From NCBI GenBank assembly GCA_963740635.1, contig CAVUEQ010000002.1, forward strand, positions 1 through 39,610: a stretch of 39,610 bases of DNA, written 5' to 3'. Under the pieces are notes generated by a model. The model was given only the letters and a program-made list of their open reading frames with translations. It ran no database searches and was not told the origin of the DNA. Position numbers and translations under genes: made by a program. This stretch comes from an uncultured bacterium. Its GTDB lineage: Bacteria; Patescibacteriota; Saccharimonadia; UBA4664. Shown one piece after another: positions 2,469 to 27,778 of the stretch (its first letter is position 1; each line of letters begins with the position of its first letter).

Positions 2469-4631
<2,163 letters not shown>

Positions 4632-4702: not shown

Positions 4703-6196
4703 ATGTTTAGGAAGATCGTCTCTTCGCTATCGTTATCACCGAGTGCCGTCAGCCAACTGACGTTCTACGCCCGCCGCCTCAAACAAGAGCAAGTCACCCG
4801 CTCATTTTCGGCCATCGCGGCCGTTCTCCTGGTGGGCCTCCAGGCTGCGGTCGTTCTGGGCCCGCCCACGCCATCCAATGCCGCCTCCCCCTCAGACATC
4901 ATCCACGGCGGCATCACCTCCCGCACGGACCTGCTGAACCATTATGACCAAAGTGCCGAGCTCCAGTCCATCTACGCGCGCCTCGGCATTACCCGCGCCG
5001 AGCTCGCCGTCACCTCAAAAGCCAAAATCAACACCCTCGACCGCACGCTAAAATCCATCGGCCGCAGCCAGCACGGCGCCAGCGATTACGAGGTTAAAAT
5101 CGGCGCCCACGGCTACTGGATGCAGCCGTTGTATCAATGGGACAGCGGCTGGTTCGCGACTCATGGCTCCACCTACGACGTGCTCCAGGGCCATCGCCGC
5201 GACGGCAGTTATTTCGCGGTCATGTTTCTGTGCGGCAATATTGTGACCAAAACCTACCCGCCGGCTCCCCCGGCTCCCACGCCCAAGCCAACCCCCAAAC
5301 CCACGCCCAAGCCCACCCCGAAGCCAACCCCCAAACCCACCCCCAAGCCGGCTGTCAGCTTGGATTGCACCGAATTCAATGGTGATGCCATCAGCGGCCC
5401 CGCCCCGCTCAGCGTCAAGTTCACCGGCCTCGGCGCCGCCACCGGCCAATCCATCGACGACTACATCTTCGACTATGGCGACTCCAAACTCGACCACAAG
5501 AAAACCGGTTCCGTCGTGCACGTCTACCAAAACCCCGGCAAATTCATCGCCCACCTCCAGGTCCACGGATCGGCCGGCAAAACCACCGACAAAAACGATG
5601 TCTGCAGCTATACCGTCACCGTCACGGCCACTCCGCCCAGCTTCACCAAATCCAAGTCGGCCCTCAACCTCACCCAAAACATCGACGCCACCACCAAACC
5701 AGCCGCCGGCGGCGATGTCATTAAATACAGTCTCCACACCAAGAACATCGGCGGCACCGCCGGCGACTACGTTGTCACCGAGCACATCTCTGACGTTCTG
5801 GAGTATGCCGACGTCACCGACTCCGGCGGCGCCACCCTCACCAACGGCGTGCTCACCTGGCCTTCCCGCAACCTCACCCCTGGCCAAGCCCTGGGCCTCA
5901 CGTTCACGGTCAAAATTAAAAACCCGGTGCCTTCGACCCCCATTGGTATCTCCGACAAAGACAGCTTCGACCTGCGCCTGGACAACGTCTACGGCAATGC
6001 AGTCCAGATCGCGGTCGCTCCCCCGGTATCCAAAGAGATCGAGGCCGCCACTACCAGCCTCCCCGCCACCGGCGCTCCGCTGGCCACCGTCATCGTGCTC
6101 GCGGTCAGCGGCATCAGCCTGTTCTTTTACTTCCGCAACCGCCAGTTAATCACCGAGATTAAGCTGCTCCGCGGCGAATTTCAGAGCGGTCTATAA
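4703..6196 (+). CDS. Sortase-anchored surface protein: N-terminal TM/signal anchor, (TPKP)6 linker, PKD-like domain, DUF11-like repeat domain, LPATG sorting signal
   Basis: Hydrophobic N-terminus (AIAAVLLVGLQAAVVLG). PKD-like PLSVKFTG..FDYGDS..VHVYQNPGKF. DUF11-like GDVIKYSLHTKNIGGTAGDYVVTEHISDVLEY. C-terminal SLPATG plus a hydrophobic helix plus RNRQ, followed by 14 extra residues. Confidence 0.85.
   Translation: MFRKIVSSLSLSPSAVSQLTFYARRLKQEQVTRSFSAIAAVLLVGLQAAVVLGPPTPSNAASPSDIIHGGITSRTDLLNHYDQSAELQSIYARLGITRAELAVTSKAKINTLDRTLKSIGRSQHGASDYEVKIGAHGYWMQPLYQWDSGWFATHGSTYDVLQGHRRDGSYFAVMFLCGNIVTKTYPPAPPAPTPKPTPKPTPKPTPKPTPKPTPKPAVSLDCTEFNGDAISGPAPLSVKFTGLGAATGQSIDDYIFDYGDSKLDHKKTGSVVHVYQNPGKFIAHLQVHGSAGKTTDKNDVCSYTVTVTATPPSFTKSKSALNLTQNIDATTKPAAGGDVIKYSLHTKNIGGTAGDYVVTEHISDVLEYADVTDSGGATLTNGVLTWPSRNLTPGQALGLTFTVKIKNPVPSTPIGISDKDSFDLRLDNVYGNAVQIAVAPPVSKEIEAATTSLPATGAPLATVIVLAVSGISLFFYFRNRQLITEIKLLRGEFQSGL
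5279..5350 (+). repeat. Tandem 12-nt coding repeat encoding (TPKP)x6
   Basis: acg ccc aag cca / acc ccc aaa ccc ... read in frame with the 4703 ORF. Confidence 0.9.
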
Positions 6197-7745: not shown

Positions 7746-10700
7746 CTATTCTCCTATCAATACGTTGCCCTTGTCATCAACGTAGACTTCACCCGGCGCC
7801 AACTTTTTGGGCTTGGGAGCATCAGCTTTTTTAACCTCGACAGCCGGCTTTTCGCCGGTTGGCAAAATTAACTTTCCGGTGAGCGGAGCCGCTTCTTTGG
7901 CGGCCGCCGACGGTTCGTTGTGCTCCGCCTCTTCTTTACTGCCCACTGTTTCGGCCGGCTTTTCCAGCCGGTGACGCCGCCGCCGGCCGGCCCGGTTGCC
8001 GCTGCCCGCATCCCCAGGCGCCCCTCCGGCCGGCACTGCCGGCTTTTGGCCGTCCGGCTTCCCAGCCTGTGCGGGGGCAGGCGGCGCGGGCTGGCCGGCC
8101 GGCTTGCCGGGCGCCGCAGGCTGCGGACCGGGCGGTGCGGCTGCGGTCGGTACGGACGGAGACGCGGGTGGCGGTGCCTGAATGGCCTTGGCCTTCGCCA
8201 CATCCCCGGCCGCCAACGACTGCGCCTCAGGCATTCCAAATTCATCAACCTGCAGCTGGGCAACCGGCGCCGGTTCTTGGCTGAGCATCATTGGCTCGGC
8301 ATGCTTAATAACTGCCGCCGCGGGCGGGGCAGGCGGCAAACTCACGGCCGCGCTCGACGGCATTGGCGGCACAGCTCCCGGCTGGCTAGGCGCTGCTGCG
8401 CCAGGAACCGCCACGGCTGGCTTGACACCCGCGCCAGGAACCGGCGCCGGCGTTGTTGGCCGCGACGGTTGTCCCGAAGCTGGACCCGCGGGTTTCGGCT
8501 GATTGGCCGGCGCGGGAGCAGGCGTTGTCGGTTGCACTCCCTCAGCCTTATTCAGTTCAGCAATCTCTTTGGCAAACCGTTCCTTCGAAGGCACTATCGG
8601 TTCAAGCGGCTCTATCACTTTAAGTCCATGGTGCTCAGACGGCGCATATTTGTCGCGGTCGTCTGGTGGCGGTGCCGGTGGCGAGGCCACACCCAGGTCT
8701 ATATTGCCCGTTAGCTGCCGCTCTTCATCTGGATTTGACTGTACCGGCTCGGGCAGGCGGCGGTGTATGGCCGTACTATCCGGCTTTATCAATGACACGC
8801 TGAGTAGGTCGTCAATTACGTGCTCAGCCTTCTTAATCTGTTCCGCCGGCGTCACGTCAGTAGCGGGCTGAGATTGCTGGGTGGGTGCGCTGGGTTTTAT
8901 CAGTTCCCCGGATCCGGGACCAGACGCGGGCGGCGGTGAGGCGGCGGTAGGCTCCATGGCTGGCGTAGCGGGCGCCGCTGGTGCAACGGGTACTGCGGGC
9001 GCGATCGGCGGGGTAGCCGCCGGAGCCGGTTTTGCTTCGGGCGCGGCCTTGGGCTCAGCCTGTGCTGCCGCGGCTACCGGCTCTGGCGCAGCTACCGGCG
9101 CTTCGGCCGGCTTCACGGGTGCCCCTTGGGTATCCACCGGTGTCTCGTGAGGCCGCATATCCGGCGGCAAAGCTTCGGCCACGCTCACGACCGCATCCAG
9201 CGGCGAAGGCGGTGGCGGGACGGCCGGCTTAGCTTCAGGACCGGCGGTCAGTTTGGCCACCAAATCCGCCTGCCCGGCCGGCATGCCGTCTACCTGCGGC
9301 ACGGGCTGCGACTGCGCCGGCGGCGTGGTCTGCGGGGCCGGCTTGGGCATGGGCTGGGACACAGGCGGCAACGGAGCCGGCTGAGGCGCAGCTGATTGCA
9401 CTAATTGCACACCCTCAGGAAGGCCACTGAGCCTCGGTTTACCATCAGGGGTCAAATCCTCGGATGCATCCGGTGAATTCAATAATTTCTCCGCCGCCGG
9501 ATCCACAAAGTGAATCAACGGTCCGCTAACAGCGGGCTGCTGCGGTGCGGGCGCAGGTTCCGGTACCGGTTCAGGCTGGAACTGCGGGGCCGGTTCGGGC
9601 TTGGCCGGCGGGGCCGGCTCGGGTTCGGCCGCTAACACTGGTGCCGGTGCCGGCCTCAACCGCGGTGCCGGTGCCGGCCGCGGTGCCGACGCGGGCTCCG
9701 GCGCTAGCCGGGGCATTGGCTCTGGCGCTGGTACCGGCCGAGGGGCAGGTACAGGCAGCGGTGCGGGCACGGGTGCAGCAATTGGCTCAGGTCCGGCGGG
9801 TTCCGCTATGGGCTCAGGAGCCGGGGTTACGGCTGGCGCTGTCGGGACCGGCTCGCTCGCGGCCACCGGTTCCGGCACCGGCAGGTCAGCTGGTATGCGC
9901 ACAGGCTCAAGCACAACCTCGGGCGCCGGCCCAGGCTCGGACCCGGACCGCGTCTCAATCGGCGGTTCCTCCAGCACCTGTGGCTCCCCGGCAGGTTCAG
10001 GCACATCCAATTGGGCGGACGCAGGCTCGGCGGCCGGCGGCTGAACCGCTGACTCGGCGGCCGGCGGCTGAACCGCAGGCTCGGGCGGCGTCACGGGAAC
10101 AGGCTCAGGCGCCGCCGGTGCGCTTCCCAGCACATCAATGCCGGCATACGGGTCGTCCGCCAGAGGCTGGCCGTCACCCACAACCGGTCCCGCGGAAGCC
10201 GGCTGGGAGGGCGCCGCCTGCGACGCCGATGGGGGCGGCGAATCGCCCAGAATATCGATGTTCGCGTAGGGATCCCCTTCCAGTGGTTGGCCATCGGCCA
10301 CATATTCCGGCTGAGGCCCCTCACCCAGGAGCGGCACATCGTCCAACGGCGACGGCTCAGCAGGCACGGCGGCGTTAACCGGACCTGAACGCCCGCCACC
10401 GGTAATATCACCAATCGACAGCGTGCCGGGGTCGTTCGGCAACGCCACCGGCGGCGCCCCTATCGGCGGTGCCCCAATCGGCGGCGGCGCCGTAGCCAGT
10501 GTTGCCGCCGCGGCTGAGGCCAAGGCTGTCTGCGGCTGTGGGGCATTTTCTCCAACTTGGCTTTGCGCGGCCACGAGTTGTTGTGCCAACTCGTCCTCAG
10601 CGCCGCCCTGCTGCAGCCCGGAGGCCGGAGATGCGGCAGGCTGCGTTAGGGCGGGTACAACTTGAGCGGGTTGCGGCTGCGCAAACGTCGCCTGCCCCGG

Positions 10701-11150
10701 GGCTTGATCGCCAACCGGCAAATCAATCGGCGGCGCGCCAATTGGGGGCGCACCAATCGGCGGTGCGCCGGCCACCAACACGCCAATCGGTGCCTGAACA
10801 GCGTCCATGGCCGGCTGTGAATTTTGCACCGGAACCGGTTGTGCTACAGGACGCTCGGCCAGCGCTGCCCCTGGCGCGGGGGCAGCCGCCGGCGCCGATG
10901 CGAACGCTAATTGCGCCAAAGCCGGCACAAGCTGCGGAGTTGGCAGTGGTGCCGGCGCGGGTTCTGGAACGGGTGGAGGTGCTGGAGCCGGCGCGGGCGC
11001 AGGCTCCGGTTCCGGCGCTGGCGCTACCACCGGTGCGGGTACAGGCGCCGGCGCAGGCCCGGCACTCGGAACGGGACCAGGAGCGGGTGGCGGCGATGTC
11101 ACGGCCGGCGATGCTGCCGCTGCCCGTTCCTTCGAAATCGGCGGCTTCGC
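7746..11150 (-). other. Low-complexity Pro/Ala-rich coding tail of the giant gene, with internal repeated motifs
   Basis: It begins after ..VVEADLIDRLSAKPPISKERAAAAS. It contains APPIGAPPIGAPPI twice (DNA ~10444..10495 and ~10719..10778), and DGQPLEGDPYANIDILGD / DGQPLADDPYAGIDVLGS (DNA ~10120..10300). Many spurious ORFs open in other frames here. Confidence 0.9.
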
Positions 11151-13583
11151 ACTCAGCCGGTCAATCAGATCCGCCTCCACCACCGCCTTATCGTGCCCGA
11201 ACTTCGCAGCAGACAGCTGCTTAATCGCCAGCCCCAGCTCGGCGTTGGCATTGCCGAGCGGCGCCGAATCCGCGATGCTAAACGGCTGGCTCGGCAGCCC
11301 CCCGATCATCAGCCGCATCGCCGCATGGTAGTTCGGAATATTCACCAAATCGCTCGCGTCAAACACCGGCGCGAACTGCTTCACCATAAATTCCGCGTCG
11401 TCCGGCCCCATCCTATGCGCCACAATCGTGCCAATGTTGCCAAACACCGCGTCGCGCACCTCCGGGCTCAGCTGGCCAATAAACTGGTTAGCCACTATCA
11501 AATTCAGCCGGTATTTGCGCGCCTCGCTCAAAATGCTGGCGAAACTATCCGTCGAAAAGTTCTGGAATTCGTCCACGTACAGCGCGAAGTCCGCCCGCTC
11601 CGCCTCCGGCATGTCCGCCCGGGACATAGCCGCCGCCTGGAACTTAATCACGAAGATCATGCCCAACAGTTGCGAATTCAACTCCCCTATCCGCCCCTTG
11701 CTCAGGTTCACCACCAGGATTTTCTTGTGATCCATCACGTCGCGCAGGTTGAAGCTCGATTTCGTCTGCCCGATAATGTTGCGCATCATCTCGTTGTTCT
11801 GGAACGCCCCGAACTTACTCACAAACCATCCGAGCATCTCACTCTTGTGAAAGTCGCTCGTCTGCCCCATCTCCTTCGTCCAGAAATCGATCACCGTCGG
11901 GTCTTTGAGATATTTAAACTTCTTCTTCAGGTAATCCGTATCTGTAAACACTTTCGGAATCTCAATAAACGTCGACCCGCCGGGGTCGCTCATCAGCGTC
12001 AGCGCGGCATTGCGGTACCAGTGCTCATACCGCGGCCCGATAATCCCCGTATGGCCCGGGTCGTACAGCTTGTACAGCATGTTTATCGTTTCCTGAACGA
12101 TAAAATCCTTTTGCGCCGGGTCGGTAAATTCAAACAAGTTCAACCCCAGCGGATACTGCGTGTCGGCCGGGTTAAAGTAAATTACGTCCTCAGCCCGCTC
12201 CTTCGGCACCAACGCCAACAGTTTCTCGGCGCTGTCGCCATGCGGGTCAATAAACGCGAACCCGTTGCCGGCCAGCATGTCCTGCACCGCCAGGTTCTCG
12301 AGCATGGTCGATTTACCGGTGCCGGTCTGACCCAGAATGTAGGTGTGCCGCCGCCGGTCCTCCGCGCTCAGCCTGATCTCCTTCTTGACCCCGCGAAATT
12401 CGTTAAAGCCAAACAACAGCCCCGCCGTCGGCAATTGCACCGGCCCGTCCACCTGCTTGCTCTGCTGCCGCTCGACGCTCGCGCTGGGCGTAAATTGCGA
12501 ATCGGGGAAATGGAACAGCGTCGCCAGCTCGGCGCTGTTGAGCACATTGCTGCTCAGCTCGTTGGGGAAAAACCGGAAAATAAAGGCCGTCACCAGCCCC
12601 TGTACGTCCACCGCCGGCAAAAACCTAAATCCATTCAGCCCCGGCGCGTCGTACAGCGCGAAGGCCGTCGCGATGTCGCGCAGGAGTTGCTGGCTCCTCA
12701 TCACCGACCCCGTCGACACGATCACGCGGATCAGCACCTCAAAGCCCGGGTGCTTCACCTTCTCTTCAATCCGCTCCACATTCGACAGCTGCAGCTTACT
12801 CACATCCGGCTGCCCGCCGTTCAGCTGGCGCTCTTCCGCCCGCCGCTCAGCCGGAGCTTTTACGGCCGCCTTCGCCAGGTCCATCGCCGTAAATTTCAGA
12901 TCGTTGTTTTTGCCTTTGCGAAGCTTCTCGGCCAATGCCGCCGATTTTTTGATCCACCCAATGGCCGCCGGCCGCAACATTATCTGGAGGGCCACGCCGT
13001 CTTCTTTTTGCAGCGCCGATATCGTAGTTAGCAGCGCCTCCATCGGGTCTTTATCGAGCTGGTCGTAGGTCGCAATCGGGTAGGCGTTCTCGTTCTTGAG
13101 CGTCATTTCCCCGCCCAAAGTAGCCGCCAGTCTCCCCTCTTGGTTGAAAATGTTGTGGTCTTCTACCTCCTCCAGCCGCGCGCCCGGATAGGCCGTCAGC
13201 ACCGCCTTCTTCACCACACTCACCAATGCCACCGGCACCGCCGCGAAGAAGTGCACGATGCCCTCAGATACAATCAGCTCCAGCGCGATATGCCGCTGGC
13301 CATAAAAATTGCTCTTAAAGCCTTCCGTCGCGGTCCCGGCAATCAGGTTATACAATACCTCTGCCTGCGACGTCTTCTCGCGCATCACCTCGCGGATATC
13401 ACGGTTCTCCGAATGCGTGTCGTGGGAGGGCGGCGGCAAATGGATCAGGATCGGCACCATCTTGAGCCCGCGCTCAATCGCCTTCGCCCGCCTCAATTTC
13501 TTCTGATAAGTAAAAAACGCCACAGCACCCAGCCCTCCTGCCAGGAGAAAAAACACCAGAACAATTAGCAAAATACCGCTCAC
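7746..13583 (-). CDS. Giant membrane-anchored TraD/VirD4-like P-loop ATPase (residues 1-~810) fused to a ~1,135-aa Pro/Ala-rich tail (1,945 aa)
   Basis: One uninterrupted frame. GTG start at 13583 with SD GAGGT 8 nt upstream. N-terminal TM (ILLIVLVFFLLAGGLGAVAFF). Walker A GQTGTGKST, Walker B ALYVDEFQNF, and RKYRLNLIVANQFIGQL. The rest is P/A/G/Q/E low complexity. Confidence 0.88.
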   Translation of the reverse strand: MSGILLIVLVFFLLAGGLGAVAFFTYQKKLRRAKAIERGLKMVPILIHLPPPSHDTHSENRDIREVMREKTSQAEVLYNLIAGTATEGFKSNFYGQRHIALELIVSEGIVHFFAAVPVALVSVVKKAVLTAYPGARLEEVEDHNIFNQEGRLAATLGGEMTLKNENAYPIATYDQLDKDPMEALLTTISALQKEDGVALQIMLRPAAIGWIKKSAALAEKLRKGKNNDLKFTAMDLAKAAVKAPAERRAEERQLNGGQPDVSKLQLSNVERIEEKVKHPGFEVLIRVIVSTGSVMRSQQLLRDIATAFALYDAPGLNGFRFLPAVDVQGLVTAFIFRFFPNELSSNVLNSAELATLFHFPDSQFTPSASVERQQSKQVDGPVQLPTAGLLFGFNEFRGVKKEIRLSAEDRRRHTYILGQTGTGKSTMLENLAVQDMLAGNGFAFIDPHGDSAEKLLALVPKERAEDVIYFNPADTQYPLGLNLFEFTDPAQKDFIVQETINMLYKLYDPGHTGIIGPRYEHWYRNAALTLMSDPGGSTFIEIPKVFTDTDYLKKKFKYLKDPTVIDFWTKEMGQTSDFHKSEMLGWFVSKFGAFQNNEMMRNIIGQTKSSFNLRDVMDHKKILVVNLSKGRIGELNSQLLGMIFVIKFQAAAMSRADMPEAERADFALYVDEFQNFSTDSFASILSEARKYRLNLIVANQFIGQLSPEVRDAVFGNIGTIVAHRMGPDDAEFMVKQFAPVFDASDLVNIPNYHAAMRLMIGGLPSQPFSIADSAPLGNANAELGLAIKQLSAAKFGHDKAVVEADLIDRLSAKPPISKERAAAASPAVTSPPPAPGPVPSAGPAPAPVPAPVVAPAPEPEPAPAPAPAPPPVPEPAPAPLPTPQLVPALAQLAFASAPAAAPAPGAALAERPVAQPVPVQNSQPAMDAVQAPIGVLVAGAPPIGAPPIGAPPIDLPVGDQAPGQATFAQPQPAQVVPALTQPAASPASGLQQGGAEDELAQQLVAAQSQVGENAPQPQTALASAAAATLATAPPPIGAPPIGAPPVALPNDPGTLSIGDITGGGRSGPVNAAVPAEPSPLDDVPLLGEGPQPEYVADGQPLEGDPYANIDILGDSPPPSASQAAPSQPASAGPVVGDGQPLADDPYAGIDVLGSAPAAPEPVPVTPPEPAVQPPAAESAVQPPAAEPASAQLDVPEPAGEPQVLEEPPIETRSGSEPGPAPEVVLEPVRIPADLPVPEPVAASEPVPTAPAVTPAPEPIAEPAGPEPIAAPVPAPLPVPAPRPVPAPEPMPRLAPEPASAPRPAPAPRLRPAPAPVLAAEPEPAPPAKPEPAPQFQPEPVPEPAPAPQQPAVSGPLIHFVDPAAEKLLNSPDASEDLTPDGKPRLSGLPEGVQLVQSAAPQPAPLPPVSQPMPKPAPQTTPPAQSQPVPQVDGMPAGQADLVAKLTAGPEAKPAVPPPPSPLDAVVSVAEALPPDMRPHETPVDTQGAPVKPAEAPVAAPEPVAAAAQAEPKAAPEAKPAPAATPPIAPAVPVAPAAPATPAMEPTAASPPPASGPGSGELIKPSAPTQQSQPATDVTPAEQIKKAEHVIDDLLSVSLIKPDSTAIHRRLPEPVQSNPDEERQLTGNIDLGVASPPAPPPDDRDKYAPSEHHGLKVIEPLEPIVPSKERFAKEIAELNKAEGVQPTTPAPAPANQPKPAGPASGQPSRPTTPAPVPGAGVKPAVAVPGAAAPSQPGAVPPMPSSAAVSLPPAPPAAAVIKHAEPMMLSQEPAPVAQLQVDEFGMPEAQSLAAGDVAKAKAIQAPPPASPSVPTAAAPPGPQPAAPGKPAGQPAPPAPAQAGKPDGQKPAVPAGGAPGDAGSGNRAGRRRRHRLEKPAETVGSKEEAEHNEPSAAAKEAAPLTGKLILPTGEKPAVEVKKADAPKPKKLAPGEVYVDDKGNVLIGE
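10026..10076. repeat. Two perfect 24-nt copies (CTCGGCGGCCGGCGGCTGAACCGC) at 27-nt period inside the tail
   Basis: The copies are at 10026..10049 and 10053..10076, encoding AVQPPAAES twice on the minus strand. Confidence 0.9.
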
Positions 13584-17972: not shown

Positions 17973-19000
17973 CGAAACTTCTCCAAAAACCGGAAGTTCG
18001 GGCGCCAAAATTCGCGCACGTCATCCACTCCGTATTTGATGGCCGCCAGCCTCTCGGGCCCAAACCCAAAGGCAAACCCGCTGTACACCTCCGGGTCGAT
18101 CCCCACGTTGCGCAAAACCTGCGGGTGCACCATGCCGGCGCCGCCCAATTCGAGCCAACCCGTACCGCCACACAAATGACAGCTCTTGCCGGCCAGCTGT
18201 CCCGTCCCGCCGCATATCACACATGTTGCATCCATTTCAACACTTGGCTCGGTGTAGGGGAAGTAGTTTGGGCGCAACCGCAATTTAGTATCGTCTCCGA
18301 GCACACCCCTCAGCATTTGCTCCAGTGTGCCCTTGAGGTCGCCGATGCTCACACCCTTGTCTACCACTAACCCTTCAATCTGATAAAAGCTCCAGGAATG
18401 CCGCGAATCCTCGTCCTCATTGCGGTACACCTTCCCCGGCACAATGATCCGGATAGGGAAGTCATCTTTATGTTCCTGCATGTACCGTATCTGCACCGAC
18501 GACGTATGAGTCCGCGGCAAATGTGCTTCTTCCAGATAGAAAGTATCCTGCATATCCCTCGCCGGGTGGTCCTTCCCCACCAGCAACGCCTCAAAATTAT
18601 GCCACTCCGTCTCCACTTCCGGCCCCTCTGCTACCTGGTAGCCCATCTGCCAAAACAAGTCCACGAGCTGATCCAGTACCACACTCACCGGATGCCGGTG
18701 CCCCAAATCCGGAGCGACACCCGGAGCCGTTACATCGAGCGGCTTAGCAAGCTGCTGCTCTTCAGCTGCCGCCTCCAGTTCCGATTGCTTATCGTATATC
18801 GCCGCCTCCACCGCCACGCGCAGTTCATTAGCGCGCTTTCCCGCCTCAGCCCTCTGCCCAACCGGCATCTCCCCCACCGCCTTCAATGCCTGGGTCAGGC
18901 TACCCTTTCGCCCCAGATAGGCAAGCCGCAGCGCCTCGAGCTCCGTTAAGCTCGCGGCACTACTCACCTCCTCCAATATTTTGGCTTGGTCTAGGGCCAT
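17969..19000 (-). CDS. pheS: Phenylalanyl-tRNA synthetase alpha subunit (343 aa from the MALDQAKILEEV start)
   Basis: YLGRKGSLT, FPYTEPSVEMD and GGAGMVHPQVL. The 45-codon upstream extension in the ORF track overlaps the preceding membrane-protein gene and was rejected. Confidence 0.95.
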   Translation of the reverse strand: MALDQAKILEEVSSAASLTELEALRLAYLGRKGSLTQALKAVGEMPVGQRAEAGKRANELRVAVEAAIYDKQSELEAAAEEQQLAKPLDVTAPGVAPDLGHRHPVSVVLDQLVDLFWQMGYQVAEGPEVETEWHNFEALLVGKDHPARDMQDTFYLEEAHLPRTHTSSVQIRYMQEHKDDFPIRIIVPGKVYRNEDEDSRHSWSFYQIEGLVVDKGVSIGDLKGTLEQMLRGVLGDDTKLRLRPNYFPYTEPSVEMDATCVICGGTGQLAGKSCHLCGGTGWLELGGAGMVHPQVLRNVGIDPEVYSGFAFGFGPERLAAIKYGVDDVREFWRPNFRFLEKFR

Positions 19001-19365
19001 CTGAACCTCACGTACACTTCCACGATTACCAAAAGTATTCCCAGTAGTATAGCATCGAGCCAGCCAAATTGGTGCAGTGAGCTCAGCGCCAGCATCCCGA
19101 CCAACCACCCCCCTACCAGCAACCCCTGCCGCCACGAGTATCGCAGTCGGGCCGCCCCCGTGCTATGCACGCGTAAGTACGATTTGATACCGTACATAAT
19201 CAGAGAAATAATGCTTGCCAAAGCCAAAAACATTACCACAAACCAAACTGTAACTCCCAGCGGCCCCAGCTCAAATGGGTTGGTCAATAGCAAGCTCAAC
19301 ACCAAGCCCGTCACCGACACCAGCGACCACACCACCAAAACAGTTAGCCAACCAATCACAGTCAC
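18991..19365 (-). CDS. Small 4-TM membrane protein (~124 aa), translationally coupled to pheS
   Basis: Four hydrophobic helices (IGWLTVLVVWSLVSVTGLVLSLLL, VTVWFVVMFLALASIISLIMY, GLLVGGWLVGMLALSSL, LDAILLGILLVIVEVYV). The stop TAG overlaps the pheS ATG (ATGGCCCTAG). The start is uncertain. The ORF-track start at 19431 lies inside the upstream terminator hairpin, so I used the first in-frame GTG after the candidate promoter. Confidence 0.55.
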   Translation of the reverse strand: MTVIGWLTVLVVWSLVSVTGLVLSLLLTNPFELGPLGVTVWFVVMFLALASIISLIMYGIKSYLRVHSTGAARLRYSWRQGLLVGGWLVGMLALSSLHQFGWLDAILLGILLVIVEVYVRFRWP

Positions 19366-19395
19366 GCGGCAATTCCACTCACGCTTAACTCCCCC

Positions 19396-19404
19396 ATTAT
19401 CGCA
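19396..19404 (-). promoter_or_regulatory. Extended -10 box TGCGATAAT immediately downstream of the terminator; candidate promoter for the membrane-protein-pheS-pheT unit
   Basis: The minus strand reads ..GGGCGGTTTTTG TGCGATAAT gggggag.. Confidence 0.4.
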
Positions 19405-19405
19405 C

Positions 19406-19447
19406 AAAAACCGCCCGGATCGGTGCCTCACGGCATTGATCGGGCGG
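19406..19447 (-). terminator. Rho-independent terminator ending the upstream non-coding transcript
   Basis: The minus strand reads CCGCCCGAUCAAUGCC-GUGA-GGCACCGAUCCGGGCGG, a ~16-bp stem with one bulged G and two G-U pairs, followed by UUUUU. Confidence 0.75.
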
Positions 19448-19934
19448 TTTCAGATAATTCCAGAGTTACGGGGCGAATTATGACCTAATGGTCCTGAAGC
19501 ATCTATTTTTTTGTGTAATTGACGCCAGTCGCCCCGTAAGTATCTCTACTCTCCAGGCGCATAGCGTGTTTCCTAATGATGGTAATAACGTAGGCGTGTT
19601 TGTTTTGAGTAAGAGATATTGGTTTTTGAATATAGTCGGGAGCAAATTGTTGTGAGATATTGCTTCGATCTATATCCGATTACTTCCGGCAATCCAGCGG
19701 GTGGATAGCTGGAAGCAATCGGTTACCACCACTAGTGATAACCGCGTGCCTCCAGCCCCCTGCCCTAGCTCTGCGCGTTGCCTTGGTTTGGACCCAAAGT
19801 AAGAGCTTTCAAATCGGCGGTAGAGCGGACCCAGGTTAGAAATAAGGGGGATACCTCTAACCGGGGTCGGCTCCACCACCGGGAAGTGCGGGAAGTAAGA
19901 GTACTAAGCTTTCAACGATCATCGAACAGGAACT
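19448..19934 (-). ncRNA. Candidate ~0.5-kb structured non-coding RNA, family not recognised
   Basis: There is no credible ORF. The unit is bracketed by a promoter (19941..19969) and a terminator (19406..19447). There is a long imperfect hairpin at 19815..19881 (~25 bp plus a 15-nt loop). Further hairpins are at 19676..19722 and 19721..19743. A 9-bp closing stem joins ACGGGGCGA / TCGCCCCGT (19468..19476 / 19529..19537). The predicted 5' end (19927..19934) can pair with 19455..19463, just before the terminator. Confidence 0.45.
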
Positions 19935-19940
19935 AGTAAT

Positions 19941-19969
19941 AAGTTAGCACAAGCAGTATGGAAAGTCAA
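19941..19969 (-). promoter_or_regulatory. Candidate promoter of the structured RNA (-35 TTGACT, 17 nt, extended -10 TGCTAACTT)
   Basis: The minus strand reads TTGACT (19969..19964), a 17-nt spacer, then TAACTT (19946..19941) preceded by TGC. Confidence 0.45.
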
Positions 19970-20182
19970 TATTCTTATGTCATCGTCTGCACATACAGGA
20001 TTTATCCCTACCCATAGGTAAAAACTATCTTGCTCTCTTCCCTATTCGTCCGGCGCTCAAGGACCTGTGTTGCATATTCAACAACATTTATGCACAAAAA
20101 AATCGCCAACTTTTCCAGCAAATTGCTAGGTTTCATCATATTTTATTTATGAATACAATTTTTACCCTGTGTGTCTGATTTT

Positions 20183-20191
20183 TGTTATAAT
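20183..20191 (+). promoter_or_regulatory. Extended -10 box TGTTATAAT, 6 nt upstream of ATG 20198 (leaderless)
   Basis: TGTTATAAT-tcgccc-ATG. This places the transcription start at or next to the ATG and argues against the GTG at 20171. Confidence 0.55.
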
Positions 20192-20197
20192 TCGCCC

Positions 20198-21469
20198 ATG
20201 TCTGTCGAAACCTACCCACAAACAATCGAGAAACTCCGTTTTCTCAAGCCTGAAGAAGCAACATCCCTAGCGAAGCAATACGGCACTCCCTTGTACGTTT
20301 ATGATGAGACAATCCTAAGGCAACAAGCCCATGAGGCCCTCAGCTTTAAGGCATCATTCGGACTGACCGTCCGCTACGCGATGAAAGCAAACCCGCTGGC
20401 AGGCATATTGAAGGTATTCAACAGACTCGGAATCCACATTGATGCCAGCTCAAGTTACGAAATTCAAAGAGCGGTCATGGCCGGCATACCGGCAAAAAAC
20501 GTCATGCTAACCTCCCAGCAGCTGCCGTCAAACCTTGAGGAGCTAGTGCGGACGGGGGTGATTTTCAACGCTTGCTCCTTTCACCAGCTCGAAACCTTTG
20601 GCCGCTTGTTTCCCGGTGCCGAAGTAGCAATCCGAATCAATCCCGGGATCGGCTCCGGCCACACCAAAGGCGTTGCGGTTGCCGGGCCAACCTCTAGCTT
20701 TGGCATCTGGCACGAAAACATTGACCGTGTCCAGGAAATCGTCGCCAAGCATCATCTTAAAGTCCGCACCGTTCACAGTCACATTGGCTGCGGTGCCGAC
20801 CCGGCCATTTGGCATCAAGCCGCCAAGTTAACACTGAAGTTACTCGAGCAATTCCCCAGCGCGACAACCCTAAACCTTGGCGGAGGCTTTAAAGTAGGTC
20901 GCATGGCCAACGAAGAAACCACCAATATGCAGGCGCTAAGTTCTGAAGTAGCCCAACTTCTGACGAACTTTGCAGCCAAAACTGGCCGCAAATTGCATCT
21001 GGAAATTGAACCAGGGACCTTCCTGGTCGCCAGCGCCGGCTGTCTAGTTACACGCATCATTGACTTCAACGACACCGGCCCCAATGGTTTCAACTTCCTA
21101 AAAGTAGACACCGGCATGAATGACTTCATGCGCCCTGCCTTGCATGCCGCCCAACATCCATTGGTGGTAATCAACGACAATGCCGAGACTAGCGAATACG
21201 TTGTTGTCGGGCATAACTGCGAATCAACCGACTTGCTTACACCGGCACCAGTAGACTCGGAGCGACCTCACCCGCGATTGATGCAGGCAGCCAGCATTGG
21301 TGACCTGATTGTGATTGAAGGCACGGGCGCGTATTCGTCATCAATGCGGCTGATTGGCTACAATTCTTACCCCACCCCAAACGAGGTGTTAATCGACACC
21401 AACGGGCATCCCCGCCTCATCAACCGCAGCCAAGGCGTGATGGATCTTGCGGCCTCAGAAGTGCTTTAG
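20198..21469 (+). CDS. lysA: Fold-type III PLP-dependent decarboxylase, diaminopimelate decarboxylase-like (423 aa)
   Basis: YGTPLYVYDE, RYAMKANP, HSHIGCG, EIEPGTFLVA and GHNCESTDLL fit the Orn/DAP/Arg decarboxylase family, and the CESxD motif is DAP-decarboxylase-like. Substrate is not certain. Confidence 0.8.
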   Translation: MSVETYPQTIEKLRFLKPEEATSLAKQYGTPLYVYDETILRQQAHEALSFKASFGLTVRYAMKANPLAGILKVFNRLGIHIDASSSYEIQRAVMAGIPAKNVMLTSQQLPSNLEELVRTGVIFNACSFHQLETFGRLFPGAEVAIRINPGIGSGHTKGVAVAGPTSSFGIWHENIDRVQEIVAKHHLKVRTVHSHIGCGADPAIWHQAAKLTLKLLEQFPSATTLNLGGGFKVGRMANEETTNMQALSSEVAQLLTNFAAKTGRKLHLEIEPGTFLVASAGCLVTRIIDFNDTGPNGFNFLKVDTGMNDFMRPALHAAQHPLVVINDNAETSEYVVVGHNCESTDLLTPAPVDSERPHPRLMQAASIGDLIVIEGTGAYSSSMRLIGYNSYPTPNEVLIDTNGHPRLINRSQGVMDLAASEVL

Positions 21470-24441: not shown

Positions 24442-25053
24442 CTACTTTGCCCGCTGCCGCAAAACATCCACGACATCCTCCAGCGCTACGCCCTTCGCAA
24501 CCAAGAGCACCAACAAGTGATACAGCAAATCCGCTGCTTCGCCCGCAAATGCAGCCTCGTCGGGGTTTTTCGCCGCAATTACCACCTCCACCGCCTCTTC
24601 GCCGACGTTCTGCGCCACCCTGTCTATGCCACCCTCAAACAACTCCGTGGTATATGAGCCCACAGGCTTCTTCTCTTTGCGCGTCTTAATCAAAGCGTAC
24701 AGATCATCCAGCACCTTCAACTCCGATCCGGCCGGCTGCACATCCCCGAAGCACGAAGAGCTGCCAGTATGGCAGGTGGGGCCGGTGGGCTCGGCCAGAA
24801 TCAGCAGCGCATCACTGTCGCAGTCCGCCTTTATCGACTCGACCTTCAGGCGGTTGCCCGATTCTTCCCCCTTCTCCCACAATCTATCCTTACTCCGGCT
24901 CCAAAACGTCACCCAGCCGCTCTTTTCGGTCTGCCTAAGCGCCGCTTCATTCATGTATCCCAACATCCGGACCTCTCCGGTCTTCACATCCTGAATAATC
25001 GCCGGCACCAGGCCGTCCGCTTTCGCAAAATCTATCTCTAACGTTTTCATCAT
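24442..25053 (-). CDS. hisIE: Bifunctional phosphoribosyl-AMP cyclohydrolase / phosphoribosyl-ATP pyrophosphatase (203 aa)
   Basis: HisI part GLVPAIIQD..MLGYMNEAAL..SRSKDRLWEKGEESGN..DCDSDALL..GPTCHTGSSSCF. HisE part GSYTTELFEGG..VGEEAVEVVIAA..EAADLLYHLLVLL. Confidence 0.93.
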   Translation of the reverse strand: MMKTLEIDFAKADGLVPAIIQDVKTGEVRMLGYMNEAALRQTEKSGWVTFWSRSKDRLWEKGEESGNRLKVESIKADCDSDALLILAEPTGPTCHTGSSSCFGDVQPAGSELKVLDDLYALIKTRKEKKPVGSYTTELFEGGIDRVAQNVGEEAVEVVIAAKNPDEAAFAGEAADLLYHLLVLLVAKGVALEDVVDVLRQRAK

Positions 25054-25820
25054 TAACTCCTTACAGCCACGCCCGCGGTCCGCAGGTAGGCCTTAACTTC
25101 TGGTATGCTCAGCTCGCCAAAGTGAAACACCGACGACGCCAGCGCGGCATCAGCAACGCCGGGTGCTAGCACGTCGGCAAAATCCTGCAGCTTCCCAGCG
25201 CCGCCCGAGGCCACCACGGGGATGCGCAAAAACCCGTTCAAGCTCCGCTGTAACCGCAAATCGTACCCCTGCTTCATTCCGTCGGTATTCATAGTGTTAA
25301 GCACTATCTCACCGGCCCCCCGGTCCTGCACCTCCCGCACCCAGTCCAGCGTGTCGCGGCCGGTATTCTTCATGGTCTCCACCCGGCCGGTGTGCGAATA
25401 CACCATATCGCGCCCATCCTTCTGCATCGAATCAATTCCCACCACTATGCATTGCGCGCCAAACATCGCCGCCCCCTCATTAATAAGGTCAGGGTTCTCC
25501 AGCGCGGCGGTATTAATGGAGACCTTGTCCGCGCCCGCCCGCAGTATAGCCTGCATGTCAGCAATTGTGCGAATGCCGCCGCCCACCGTCAGCGGGATAA
25601 AGATTTCGCGGGCGATCTCGCGCACCAGACTGATCATAGTGGCCCGCCGGTCGGCGCTGGCCGTAATGTCATAGAAAACCAGCTCATCGGCGCCCTCGGC
25701 AGCGTATTTCTTGGCCAGCTCAACGGCGTCGCCGGCGTCGCGGTGCCCGTCAAATTGCACCCCTTTCACCACCCGGCCGTCCCTGATGTCCAGGCATGGG
25801 ATTATGCGCTTAGCTAACAC
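25053..25820 (-). CDS. hisF: Imidazole glycerol phosphate synthase cyclase subunit (255 aa), GTG start
   Basis: LAKRIIPCLDIRDGRVVKGVQF.., GADELVFYDITAS, PLTVGGGIR. Confidence 0.95.
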   Translation of the reverse strand: MLAKRIIPCLDIRDGRVVKGVQFDGHRDAGDAVELAKKYAAEGADELVFYDITASADRRATMISLVREIAREIFIPLTVGGGIRTIADMQAILRAGADKVSINTAALENPDLINEGAAMFGAQCIVVGIDSMQKDGRDMVYSHTGRVETMKNTGRDTLDWVREVQDRGAGEIVLNTMNTDGMKQGYDLRLQRSLNGFLRIPVVASGGAGKLQDFADVLAPGVADAALASSVFHFGELSIPEVKAYLRTAGVAVRS

Positions 25821-26520
25821 GATTGATCTCCGAAAGTTTTATTTTGCCTTCGTACAAGGCTTTACCCACAATCGCAGCTTCCACTCCCATGGCCGCAAGC
25901 TTCGTCACAGCCTCGGCCGTGCTTACCCCGCCACTGGCAATGATCGGCATTTTGGTTGCCTTCATCAGCCTCCCCATCTCCTCATAGTTCGGCTCAGTCA
26001 GGGTGCCGTCTTTTGAAACGTCGGTATATAAGAACCGCTGCACGCCCAACTGCTCCAGCGCCGCTGCCGTAACCAGCAGATCGCGCCCATCCGCTTTTTG
26101 CCATCCGCGCGTTACCAGCTGCCCGGCCTTGGTTTCCAGAGCCACGACTATCCCGGGCGCGTTAGTGCGCAGCAGCTCCTGCAGGGCGGCCGGGTCTTCA
26201 AAGGCCATGGTGCCCACGATCACCCGCGACACACCGGCCTCCAGCAAGCGCCTCGCGTCCGGCGCCGTACGAATACCACCCCCGACCTCCACCGGAATGC
26301 TCAGAGCGGCCGCGATCTGCTTAAGGACCTCCAGATTCGCCATCCGGCCATCCTTCGCCCCATCCAGATCCACAACATGCAGCAAGCGGGCGCCCTCCGC
26401 CTCCCAACGCTTGGCCATAGCCACCGGATCGGTACCGTACACAGTTTGCTGCCCGAAGTCGCCTTGCATCAAACGCACGCACTTGCCGCCGCGTATATCA
26501 ATTGCCGGAATTACTATCAT
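25810..26520 (-). CDS. hisA: ProFAR isomerase (236 aa)
   Basis: MIVIPAIDIRGGKCVRLMQGDF.., HVVDLDGAK, PVEVGGGIR, IIASGGVS. Confidence 0.93.
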   Translation of the reverse strand: MIVIPAIDIRGGKCVRLMQGDFGQQTVYGTDPVAMAKRWEAEGARLLHVVDLDGAKDGRMANLEVLKQIAAALSIPVEVGGGIRTAPDARRLLEAGVSRVIVGTMAFEDPAALQELLRTNAPGIVVALETKAGQLVTRGWQKADGRDLLVTAAALEQLGVQRFLYTDVSKDGTLTEPNYEEMGRLMKATKMPIIASGGVSTAEAVTKLAAMGVEAAIVGKALYEGKIKLSEINRVS

Positions 26521-27149
26521 GCCGCCTCCCAGAAATTACGCAGCAGTCGCAAGCCGGCGTCGCCGCTTTTCTCCGGATGAAACTGTACCCCAAAAATGTT
26601 GCCGCTTTCAAACACGCTGCAAAATTGCCCGTCATAATCCGTTGTACCCTTTACATCATCTGCATCGGCCGGCGCGCAGTAATACGAGTGGACGAAGTAA
26701 AAGTGGCTGTCGGCAGGAATGCCCCGCAGCAATTTCGAACCTAGGACAGCCCGCACCTCATTCCAACCCATCTCCGGCACCTTCAAACTGGTCTCAAATT
26801 TCTTCACCTTTCCCGGCACCAGGTCCAGGCACCGCGCGGGACCTTCCTGGCTCTTTGTCAGCAGCAGCTGCATTCCCAGGCATATGCCCAGCACTGGAGT
26901 TCCGGCTTGAGCCGCAGCCGCCACAGCCACATCCAACCCGCTCTCCCGCAGGCGCCGCATACCTTCGCCGGCCGCACCCACGCCGGGCAATATCAGCGCC
27001 TTGGCGTTTTTCAGCGCCTCGGGATCGTCCGAAACTTCAAACGGAATGCCTAGCTTCTCCAGGGCATTGGCCACACTCGCCAGATTACCCAACCCATAAT
27101 CGATCACGACGAGCCGGTCGCTTAACCGGGCCGGATAGGACGGTTTCAT
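26517..27149 (-). CDS. hisH: Imidazole glycerol phosphate synthase glutaminase subunit (210 aa)
   Basis: VVIDYGLGNLASV, ILPGVGAAG, GICLGMQLL, FVHSYY, GVQFHPEKS. Confidence 0.93.
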   Translation of the reverse strand: MKPSYPARLSDRLVVIDYGLGNLASVANALEKLGIPFEVSDDPEALKNAKALILPGVGAAGEGMRRLRESGLDVAVAAAAQAGTPVLGICLGMQLLLTKSQEGPARCLDLVPGKVKKFETSLKVPEMGWNEVRAVLGSKLLRGIPADSHFYFVHSYYCAPADADDVKGTTDYDGQFCSVFESGNIFGVQFHPEKSGDAGLRLLRNFWEAA

Positions 27150-27778
27150 GCTGTGACCGTAACGAACCTCTCCTTAAACGCCGCTTTTTGGCTGTTTTCA
27201 AACGGTGACTCCACAAACAGTGCCTGCGAGCCAAGCACTGTCGCCAGCTCCCGCAAACCGTTGGCCTTAAGGGTGCTGCCGCTCTGCGTAATATCACAGA
27301 TGCCGTCAGCCAAACCAAGTGACGGCGCAACCTCTACCGAACCGTTCATTTTGATCACCGAAGCGTCAATCCCGTTCTCTGCCAAAAACTTCTTCAGGCT
27401 ATTGGGGTAAGTGGTTGCGATGCGCCTACCATCCAAGTCCGCAATCGACGTAATACCAGAATCGTTTGGCACTGCTAGCACGAGGCAGCACTCCCCAAAT
27501 CCCAGTTCTCTCACCGCCGGTACGGTCAGACCGCGCTCCAACACCAAATTCTCGCCCACGATTCCAAAATCAACCGTGCCATTTGCGATGTACTGGGGGA
27601 TATCGCCGTGCCGCACAAACACCAGCTCAGCCTCGATGTTACTGCACCGCACCACCAAGCTTCTAGCGTCATCCAGGTCAAATTCCACTCCCAGCGAACG
27701 CACGAAACTCAAACTAGGCCCTTTCAGCCGCCCTCCGCTTTGGATCGCGATCCTGATTGGCCTGTTTATGCTATTCAT
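27146..27778 (-). CDS. hisG: ATP phosphoribosyltransferase, short form (210 aa, no C-terminal regulatory domain)
   Basis: IRIAIQSGGRL.., VRHGDIPQYIANGTVDFGIVGEN, RIATTYPN, DITQSGSTLKANGL. Confidence 0.9.
   Translation of the reverse strand: MNSINRPIRIAIQSGGRLKGPSLSFVRSLGVEFDLDDARSLVVRCSNIEAELVFVRHGDIPQYIANGTVDFGIVGENLVLERGLTVPAVRELGFGECCLVLAVPNDSGITSIADLDGRRIATTYPNSLKKFLAENGIDASVIKMNGSVEVAPSLGLADGICDITQSGSTLKANGLRELATVLGSQALFVESPFENSQKAAFKERFVTVTA

Follow-up and report, generated by a model that had tools for sequence, protein, structure and literature searches.

A conserved structured RNA gene upstream of pheST in Saccharimonadia, a candidate new family of large non-coding RNA

A stretch of 39,610 nucleotides (nt) from an uncultured bacterium of the class Saccharimonadia (GenBank assembly GCA_963740635.1, contig CAVUEQ010000002.1, positions 1 to 39,610; hereafter the window) was analysed with respect to a non-coding element on its minus strand. 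The element, at window 19969-19406, consists of a promoter, about 529 nt without a conserved open reading frame (ORF) and an intrinsic terminator. The results indicated with high confidence that it is a genuine structured RNA gene. With moderate confidence, the segment 19934-19406 is taken to be a stand-alone gene for a large folded non-coding RNA, which would act in trans and represent a new family, of which it is the first described member. An independent structured non-coding unit of about 0.5 kb and of unrecognised family had been proposed at this place in a preliminary description made from the sequence of the window. The conserved promoter and terminator, the covariation of the helices, the lack of a conserved reading frame and the lack of an Rfam match are in accordance with that proposal.

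The transcription signals of the element were compared in the window and its homologues. The promoter has the layout TTGACT - 17 nt - TGCTAACTT on the minus strand, as had been read before, and is predicted to be a near-consensus sigma-70 promoter of the extended -10 type. The -35 box was kept as TTGAC[A/T] in all 33 homologues that reach the promoter, with a spacer to the -10 hexamer of always 17 nt. The extended -10 was conserved in the same 33 as TGnTAAGTT/TACATT with exact spacing, TGnTAAGTT/TGCTACATT being common to all the homologues. The sequence TGNGNTAANTT was matched only once in the window, at the -10 of this promoter. A generic promoter scan did not pick up the promoter because TAACTT fits TATAAT at only three of six positions. 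At the predicted start point all the homologues share the start A-GUUCG, and the predicted RNA, running from 19934 to 19406, would be 529 nt long. The strong intrinsic terminator noticed earlier at 19447..19406 was substantiated by covariation at all six pairs of its stem, which is followed by a tract of U4-7 in most homologues; with a loop of more than 8 nt, it escaped the generic terminator scan. A hairpin with a G(U/G/C)GA tetraloop was retained at the terminator apex in most homologues of the alignment, and this conserved GNRA-type apex suggests that the terminator hairpin belongs to the mature fold. Sequence signals for an independent RNA gene, a sigma-70 promoter together with an intrinsic terminator, were thus both found, and transcription of the element is predicted from them.

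A new promoter box, TGCGATAAT, had also been assigned to the downstream genes, which are that of a small protein with four transmembrane helices (4TM), pheS and pheT. It was located at 19404-19396. The conserved form TG(C/A)GATAAT separates the RNA terminator from the 4TM gene in 21 loci, and about five others have a near variant of it there. In most loci this second promoter (TTTGC..TG(C/A)GATAAT) and a conserved 5' untranslated region of the 4TM gene lie downstream of the terminator. In all, a separate promoter for 4TM-pheST was present in about 26 of 34 loci.

The collection of homologues started from a PheS-based scan of species-representative genomes, which gave 23 loci, all of them from Saccharimonadia/Patescibacteria metagenome-assembled genomes; the human-associated TM7 genomes (e.g. 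TM7x) are outside this set. A search by nhmmer with the window element as query gave matches in 21 of the 23 loci; each match lay on the pheS strand, 0.4-1 kb upstream of that gene. A DNA pattern made from the most conserved hairpin loop led to 14 further metagenome contigs and gave no match in viral contigs. With a profile made from the first alignment, 34 complete or almost complete copies were retrieved, having 51-73% identity to the window. Recognisably divergent versions of the RNA are carried by two more distant loci (L023 and L021), and four further contigs carrying it (L038-L041) were reached through homologues of the L023 4TM protein; the form in L038 is about 670 nt long and that in L039 about 400 nt. 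About 40 loci from Saccharimonadia genomes or metagenomes had enough flanking sequence, and all of them carry the RNA at the same place. One of the loci with the element, L019, belongs to the complete genome CP064960.1. It lies on the pheST strand in each of them, between trpS (or an inserted lysA) and 4TM-pheST, and the gene order is (rmuC, where present)-trpS-(lysA in 4 loci)-RNA-4TM-pheS-pheT. The separation from the 4TM gene varies: a 395-aa gene on the opposite strand stands between the two in L013, and inserts of 0.3-1.2 kb occur in several loci, including L029 and L011 (0.6-1.1 kb). The family is so far found only in the class Saccharimonadia (Patescibacteria, which are also called the candidate phyla radiation or CPR). 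A mobile or viral origin was considered and rejected, the element being absent from viral contigs, present in single copy in the window and without dispersed repeats elsewhere in it. Its G+C content is 49% compared to 58% for the window.

The conservation of the RNA at the level of base pairs was evaluated by folding energy and covariation. The minimum free energy (MFE) of 19400-19940 on the minus strand was -219.8 kcal/mol compared to -153.6 +/- 6.8 kcal/mol for dinucleotide shuffles (z = -9.7; 0 of 100). The RNAalifold consensus of 33 sequences (alignment A1) contained 78 pairs, 45 of which have at least one sequence changed on both sides and still paired. An independent count revealed that 97.0% of the cells are standard-paired, against 85.9 +/- 0.4% in column shuffles. 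The compensatory pairs numbered 45 compared to 27.3 +/- 2.4 in the shuffles and the compensatory cells 337 compared to 94, and none of 500 shuffles reached any of the five covariation measures. When the 3' partners were slid by 1-3 columns as a control, 31-45% of cells were paired and the compensatory pairs came down to 15-23. G-U or U-G pairs are in the majority at six positions (e.g. 27/33, 30/33 and 24/33); as these would be mismatches on the other strand, the minus strand is fixed as the transcribed one. The formal count covers the helices P2, P3, P3a, P4, P7, P7a and the terminator, and P6, P8 and P8a rest on RNAalifold of clade A, the clade of the window. Helices P1 and P5 are rated as probable because their compensatory sequence types were read by eye from the alignments.

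The predicted fold consists of a 5' domain organised as a five-way junction (P1-P5), a variable P6 and a 3' domain made of P8, P7/P7a and the GNRA-tipped terminator (Table 1). The single-stranded 5' leader ends in a nearly invariant UUGAAAG (19915-19909). The number of its repeat units is 3 in the window and 1-12 in the homologues, the length of the 5' tail varying from 6 to about 104 nt, and these G(U/A)YC..AA units resemble the terminal GUUCGUUGAAAG and the P3a loop. For P1, which would close the junction, the lineage types were ACUUCC/GGAAGU, CUUUUC/GGAAAG, CCCUC/GAGGG, UCUCCC/GGGAGG and GACA..CCC/GGG..UGUC; its support is weaker than that of the other helices. The P5 types were AUCCC/GGGAU, CCACCC/GGGUGG, CUGCCC/GGGCAG and UACC/GGUA. 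The hairpin of about 25 bp described earlier corresponds to P2 (19880-19816) and the 9-bp hairpin at 19743-19721 to the tip of P4, both now supported by covariation. The CCCCCUUA core and the closing A-U pair of P2 are retained even in the most divergent L023, L038 and L039. Compensatory changes were seen at 13 of 13 pairs of P3 and P3a (19767..19807). The long hairpin P6 is short or absent in several clade-B members. P8 encloses an A-rich linker and P8a in clade A and is a plain hairpin in clade B; UUACUC/GGGUAG-type pairs occur in both clades, and P8a covaries between CGC/GCG and CAC/GUG. The 9-bp stem ACGGGGCGA/UCGCCCCGU that had been picked out by eye is P7, which covariation also supports: it is 100% paired, with G-C to C-G swaps in 4 sequences, and L021 carries a compensated version, UGGGAGCG/CGCUCCCA. 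P7a showed UA to CG covariation in 12 sequences, and an extra hairpin (19494-19482) was present within the P7 region in only a few members. The invariance is concentrated in unpaired elements, namely the C5 loop of P2, GUCCAAA, CAAUUACA, UUGAAAG and GUAACUC; in the last, the columns of G, U, A and A are invariant, and conservation of the C and U after them reaches 90% or more.

Table 1. Coordinates of the features of the RNA gene and its boundary in the window
Feature	Position	Strand	Basis or remark
-35 box TTGACT	19964..19969	-	sequence; RNA's own promoter
Extended -10, TGC-TAACTT	19941..19949	-	sequence and conservation
Predicted transcription start, A	19934	-	promoter geometry, 7 nt past the -10 hexamer
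Single-stranded 5' leader, G(U/A)YC repeats	19909..19933	-	alignment
Probable P1, 5' strand UUACUUCC	19891..19898	-	pairs with 19687-19680; in MFE; closes five-way junction
P2, 26-bp rod with three 1x1 mismatches	19816..19880	-	97.9% of 26 pairs paired, 9 compensatory
P2 heptaloop UCCCCCU, within GGUAUCCCCCUUAUUUC	19851-19845	-	invariant in 33 aligned homologues
P3	19807-19803/19771-19767	-	encloses P3a
P3a hairpin	19801-19794/19786-19779	-	conserved loop GUCCAAA (19793-19787)
P4, 20-bp hairpin with conserved 2x2 internal loop	19707..19757	-	97.6% of 20 pairs paired, 12 compensatory
Probable P5, small hairpin AUCCA/UGGAU	19692..19706	-	by-eye compensatory types
Probable P1, 3' strand GGAAGUAA	19680..19687	-	as P1 5' strand
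P6, variable long hairpin, outer stem GGAUAUAG/CUAUAUUC	19628..19677	-	clade-A RNAalifold
P8 (UCUCUUACUC/GAGAGUAGAGA), 19616-19607 with 19553-19543	19543..19616	-	clade-A RNAalifold
P7 (ACGGGGCG/CGCCCCGU) with inner P7a and conserved loop CAAUUACA	19468..19537	-	formal count
Conserved single-stranded GUAACUC..AAUUAU	19454..19469	-	alignment
Intrinsic terminator and 3' domain	19406..19447	-	6/6 basal pairs covary
Terminator basal stem	19447-19442/19416-19411	-	GC-rich
Terminator apical hairpin GCC-GUGA-GGC	19434-19425	-	sequence
U5 tract of terminator	19410-19406	-	sequence
Second extended -10 TGCGATAAT, promoter of 4TM-pheST	19396..19404	-	conservation; boundary marker outside the RNA

Some pairings suggested from the window did not hold in the homologues. 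The helix proposed to close the RNA between its 5' end and the segment before the terminator is not conserved, and its cognate duplex gave -5.6 kcal/mol compared to -5.7 kcal/mol for shuffled sequences. The direct repeats UGAAAGCU..CUUACUU on both sides of P2 are a coincidence of the window, since the covarying 5' strand of P3/P3a makes up the second copy, whose sequence is different in the homologues. The 15-bp hairpin at 19722-19676 does exist in the window; as a general element it is not supported, and it competes with the covarying P4 and P1. It pairs the P4 3' strand with the P1 3' strand plus UAAUCGG. In the window and roughly half of the members of its clade it is stable, at -17 to -25 kcal/mol; the other clade lacks it, and P4 is the stronger helix in every case. 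Either an alternative fold restricted to this lineage or the mere likeness of two GGAAG strands could account for it. In the same region, GGAAGUAAUCGG (P1 3' strand plus linker, window 19676-19722, minus strand) closely resembles the P4 5' strand GGAAGCAnGCGG; the P4 3' strand therefore has two possible partners in part of clade A, which could be a conformational switch limited to that part. Tertiary pairings read by eye, of UUGAAAG with either GUAACUC or the P3a loop and of AAUU with AAUU, were rejected, having no covariation and being broken in several members in some cases. In L038, at 3330-3420, the segment AAGAUAGUCCUUCGA(U/C)(A/U)AAACUCAGGAUUAUCU is directly repeated just before P2 and looks like a partial duplication of the P2 base.

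The coding potential of the interval was analysed in the window and across the homologues. Chance ORFs of 55-69 aa are present in the window interval, and a protein-coding gene, a small-peptide mRNA or a decaying pseudogene might be supposed from them; this explanation is scarcely credible. The interval had been described as having no credible ORF, and the ORF lists and the frame analysis of the homologues agree with it. No reading frame conserved across the homologues was found by frame-to-stop analysis over P7 or by ORF clustering, so conservation at the protein level, which the preliminary description had named as a possible refutation, was not observed. The frame open toward the invariant UAA of CCCGUAAC varies, the same nucleotides being read in three frames as YGATGVNYT, LTGRLASITH and LRGDWRQLH, and many members have no start codon or have stops in the P7-region frame. 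The longest ORFs of the homologues (34-92 aa) differ in frame, length and position, 1-nt indels fall inside the most conserved alignment blocks and the substitutions in stems are compensatory. A Shine-Dalgarno sequence with AUG seen in clade A was tried as a coding start and rejected, being the 3' strand of the covarying helix P8a. The RNA is conserved at the level of base pairs and not of codons.

The element was also compared with known RNA families. The search against Rfam 15, set beforehand as a test of the region, gave no match to the element at the gathering score in the whole window, and at E<=10 over 19300-20200 and 10 homologous loci it gave nothing consistent, only scattered chance matches. 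At the gathering score, 11 more loci returned only tRNAs, 138 kb of related loci having been scanned in this way. ARAGORN detected no tRNA or tmRNA in the element and only tRNA-Pro in the window, and the CR-I motif of RNase P (GAGGAAAGUCC) was absent from the element at up to 2 mismatches. The earlier failure to fit RNase P, tmRNA, SRP, 6S or T-box consensus elements by eye is borne out by these searches. RNase P RNA (bacterial A/B) was accordingly rejected, there being also no conserved 5'/3' helix, as were tmRNA (one-piece or permuted), for which no conserved frame exists, and 6S and SRP RNA, the element having a five-way junction and a 3' domain instead. A very divergent universal RNA (RNase P, tmRNA, SRP or 6S) which escapes the covariance models would accord with a single-copy element of this size that has a strong promoter and housekeeping neighbours, and only tRNAs were recognised in the 138 kb. 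It is nevertheless very improbable in view of the negative searches above, the branched five-way architecture, which fits none of these RNAs, and the lack of a 3' CCA, a T-arm or a tag frame in the element. In the literature searched, no RNA of this kind was seen to be described for Saccharibacteria, Patescibacteria or CPR, and a preprint on the TM7x transcriptome states that no small RNAs have been validated in TM7x.

The position of the element raises the possibility of a cis-acting leader or attenuator of 4TM-pheS-pheT, that is a new RNA sensing tRNA-Phe, phenylalanine (Phe) or phenylalanyl-tRNA synthetase, with a terminator read through on demand that adds to the downstream promoter. In all loci the element precedes pheST on the same strand, its terminator lies 0-100 nt before the operon in most loci, aminoacyl-tRNA synthetase genes are on both flanks, and in about 30 of 33 members the P7 internal loop has UUC or UUU (Phe codons), often as UUCAG, on its 3' side. 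Against this, three members have UUA as the triplet, terminator and operon are separated by a conserved promoter TTTGC..TGCGATAAT, the L013 gene and the inserts intervene, no conserved antiterminator pairing to the 5' strand of the terminator was seen by eye, and the size of 400-670 nt is far larger than that of known leaders. A leader is considered unlikely. The element shares with the T-box (RF00230) its place upstream of an aminoacyl-tRNA synthetase operon and an intrinsic terminator at the end, and the internal-loop triplet that may be a Phe codon would be a further likeness; the T-box was rejected, for the element has no T-box sequence, antiterminator or model match at E<=10, is two to three times longer and is followed by an independent promoter. 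Taken together, the conserved promoters, the L013 gene, the inserts and the lack of a pairing that competes with the terminator favour a stand-alone RNA.

A partnership with the neighbouring membrane protein, as of OLE RNA with OapA, was the other explanation drawn from the position. The protein has 124 aa (window 18991-19365, minus strand), stands upstream of pheS and overlaps its start by 10 nt. It is predicted by AlphaFold2 (AF2) as four long helices with a confidence score (pLDDT) of 90, contains about 33 invariant residues including the stretch RLRYSWRQG, and has 145 homologues, all unnamed proteins of Saccharimonadia. A large ornate RNA directly upstream of a small 4TM gene in most loci, and a protein restricted to the same lineage, would suit an OLE-like membrane ribonucleoprotein (RNP). 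OLE RNA (RF01071) is also about 0.5-0.6 kb with many conserved helices, invariant loops and a narrow range. OLE RNA was rejected because neither the window region nor 10 homologous loci matched its model, whether at the gathering score or at E<=10. The element has its own promoter and terminator, and it occurs in Saccharimonadia, not in the anaerobic Firmicutes, from which OLE is known. The protein has no Pfam, NCBIfam, PDB-sequence or PDB-fold relative (best Foldseek E-value 0.86), and it is predicted to be translationally coupled to pheS and co-transcribed with pheST from the separate promoter. The whole rmuC-trpS-RNA-4TM-pheST neighbourhood is syntenic, because of which the adjacency of RNA and 4TM gene carries little information. 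An OLE-like complex is distinctly improbable; the likeness to OLE and oapA raised in the preliminary description remains an analogy only.

Other large or stand-alone RNAs gave further points of comparison. ROOL and GOLLD are large ornate RNAs that form RNA-only homo-oligomers (PMC12286853). The element resembles them in being a large, ornate bacterial orphan RNA, in its many covarying helices and GNRA-type hairpins, and in having no protein partner known so far. It matches neither model, is absent from viral contigs and sits in single copy at a fixed housekeeping location, whereas ROOL and GOLLD lie near tRNA clusters or prophages. The protein-sequestering RNAs, such as CsrB/RsmZ, and 6S are, like the element, stand-alone RNAs, the element being predicted to be abundant. 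As in CsrB/RsmZ, a short motif (here GUYC..AA) is present in variable copy number, in single strands and in a hairpin loop; it differs from GGA, and the element has a large conserved tertiary core in addition. A 6S-like rod with a central bubble is not part of the element.

According to the favoured stand-alone interpretation, the RNA would be made as a discrete, probably abundant transcript keeping its terminator hairpin. The folded RNA would act in trans, most probably as part of an RNP, and would not be a leader controlling pheST. The invariant unpaired elements may be recognition surfaces for a putative protein or RNA partner, the proposed contact elements being the C5 loop of P2, GUCCAAA, CAAUUACA, the 5'-terminal GUUCGUUGAAAG and GUAACUC. 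The 1-12 GUYC..AA units at the 5' end, an array that differs between species, may then represent further copies of one such site; by analogy, a tail with variable copy number is the pattern expected for extra binding sites, as in sequestering RNAs. Several points weigh against this interpretation. The ends, abundance and stability of the RNA are read from sequence signals, and P1, P5, P6 and P8 depend on sub-alignments or by-eye reading outside the formal count. The element stands upstream of pheST on the same strand in every locus; from this invariable position read-through into the operon, and with it a cis contribution, is conceivable, and the UUC/UUU triplet in the P7 internal loop likewise makes a cis contribution conceivable. 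Two simple ideas on trans targets failed: the P2 loop, when paired with the Shine-Dalgarno region in the leader of the neighbouring 4TM gene, gave a mean z of +0.35, and RGGGGGA sites are not enriched in the window (8 found compared to 15.5 expected).

A more specific proposal, which is improbable, is a lineage-specific housekeeping RNA with a standing comparable to that of RNase P, SRP or tmRNA. It would serve either as a decoy or as a new ribozyme or RNP core. In one decoy version, the invariant P2 loop AUCCCCCUUAUUUCUA would mimic the 3' tail of 16S rRNA and would thereby titrate what normally engages the anti-Shine-Dalgarno end, be it a factor, a toxin or Shine-Dalgarno sequences. Seven of the last 8 bases of the canonical 16S rRNA tail, which we take to be ..AUCACCUCCUUA, match the P2 loop and 3' arm. 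Such a match has a chance of about 0.2 somewhere in 500 nt, and therefore only its placement in an invariant loop gives weight to the 16S lead.

The surroundings of the element gave further observations. In the window it is flanked by lysA, trpS and rmuC on one side and by the 4TM gene, pheS and pheT on the other; gyrB, the his operon, argS and tRNA-Pro are also present. Upstream of the 4TM gene, a six-codon mini-ORF (GUG AGU GGA AUU GCC GCG UGA; 19362-19394, minus strand) stands behind the Shine-Dalgarno sequence GGGGGAG, and its UGA overlaps the GUG start of the 124-aa ORF (GUGA). The motif UAAGC(A/G)UGAG(U/C)GG is conserved in most loci, with an upstream start in frame instead in L026 and L032; the arrangement suggests that a leader peptide is translationally coupled to the 4TM-pheS-pheT operon. 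One sublineage has an ORF of about 28 aa with a strong AGGAGG Shine-Dalgarno sequence between the RNA and the 4TM gene (L014, about 5400-5500; L034, about 1080-1180; L029, 3201-3290, minus strand), its peptide containing ..SYDQLGSGFDLPRGTCIR.. in one member and ..RYEELGSQYEFPRETCIR.. in another. The pheT of L001, L003, L004, L009, L010, L013, L014, L017 and L018 was matched by the window PheT in tblastn in two pieces about 330-560 nt apart, and therefore has an insertion relative to the window. Amino-acid biosynthesis genes are unusual for the generally auxotrophic Saccharibacteria; the window holds hisG, hisH, hisA, hisF and hisIE at 24442-27778 (minus strand) and lysA at 20171-21469 (plus strand), lysA being inserted between trpS and the RNA in only 4 related loci. 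An ORF of 1945 aa at 7746-13583 (minus strand), with long G/A/P-rich tandem repeats, 66-70% G+C and no Pfam domain, may encode a surface or pilus-associated protein.

New classes of large bacterial RNA with complex folds are rare, the main examples being OLE, GOLLD, ROOL, HEARO and raiA, and each such class opened new structural or mechanistic biology. To our knowledge, the RNA biology of Saccharimonadia, which are ultrasmall, host-dependent Patescibacteria/CPR, is almost unexplored. The RNA described here occupies about 0.05% of a genome of roughly 1 Mb. The invariance of its promoter and several loops despite 51-73% identity points to a strongly selected function. It is a target for annotation by a covariance model for Rfam and a candidate for cryo-electron microscopy or probing. 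It is also a testable gene in those Saccharibacteria strains that natural competence has made genetically tractable (PMC10187176).

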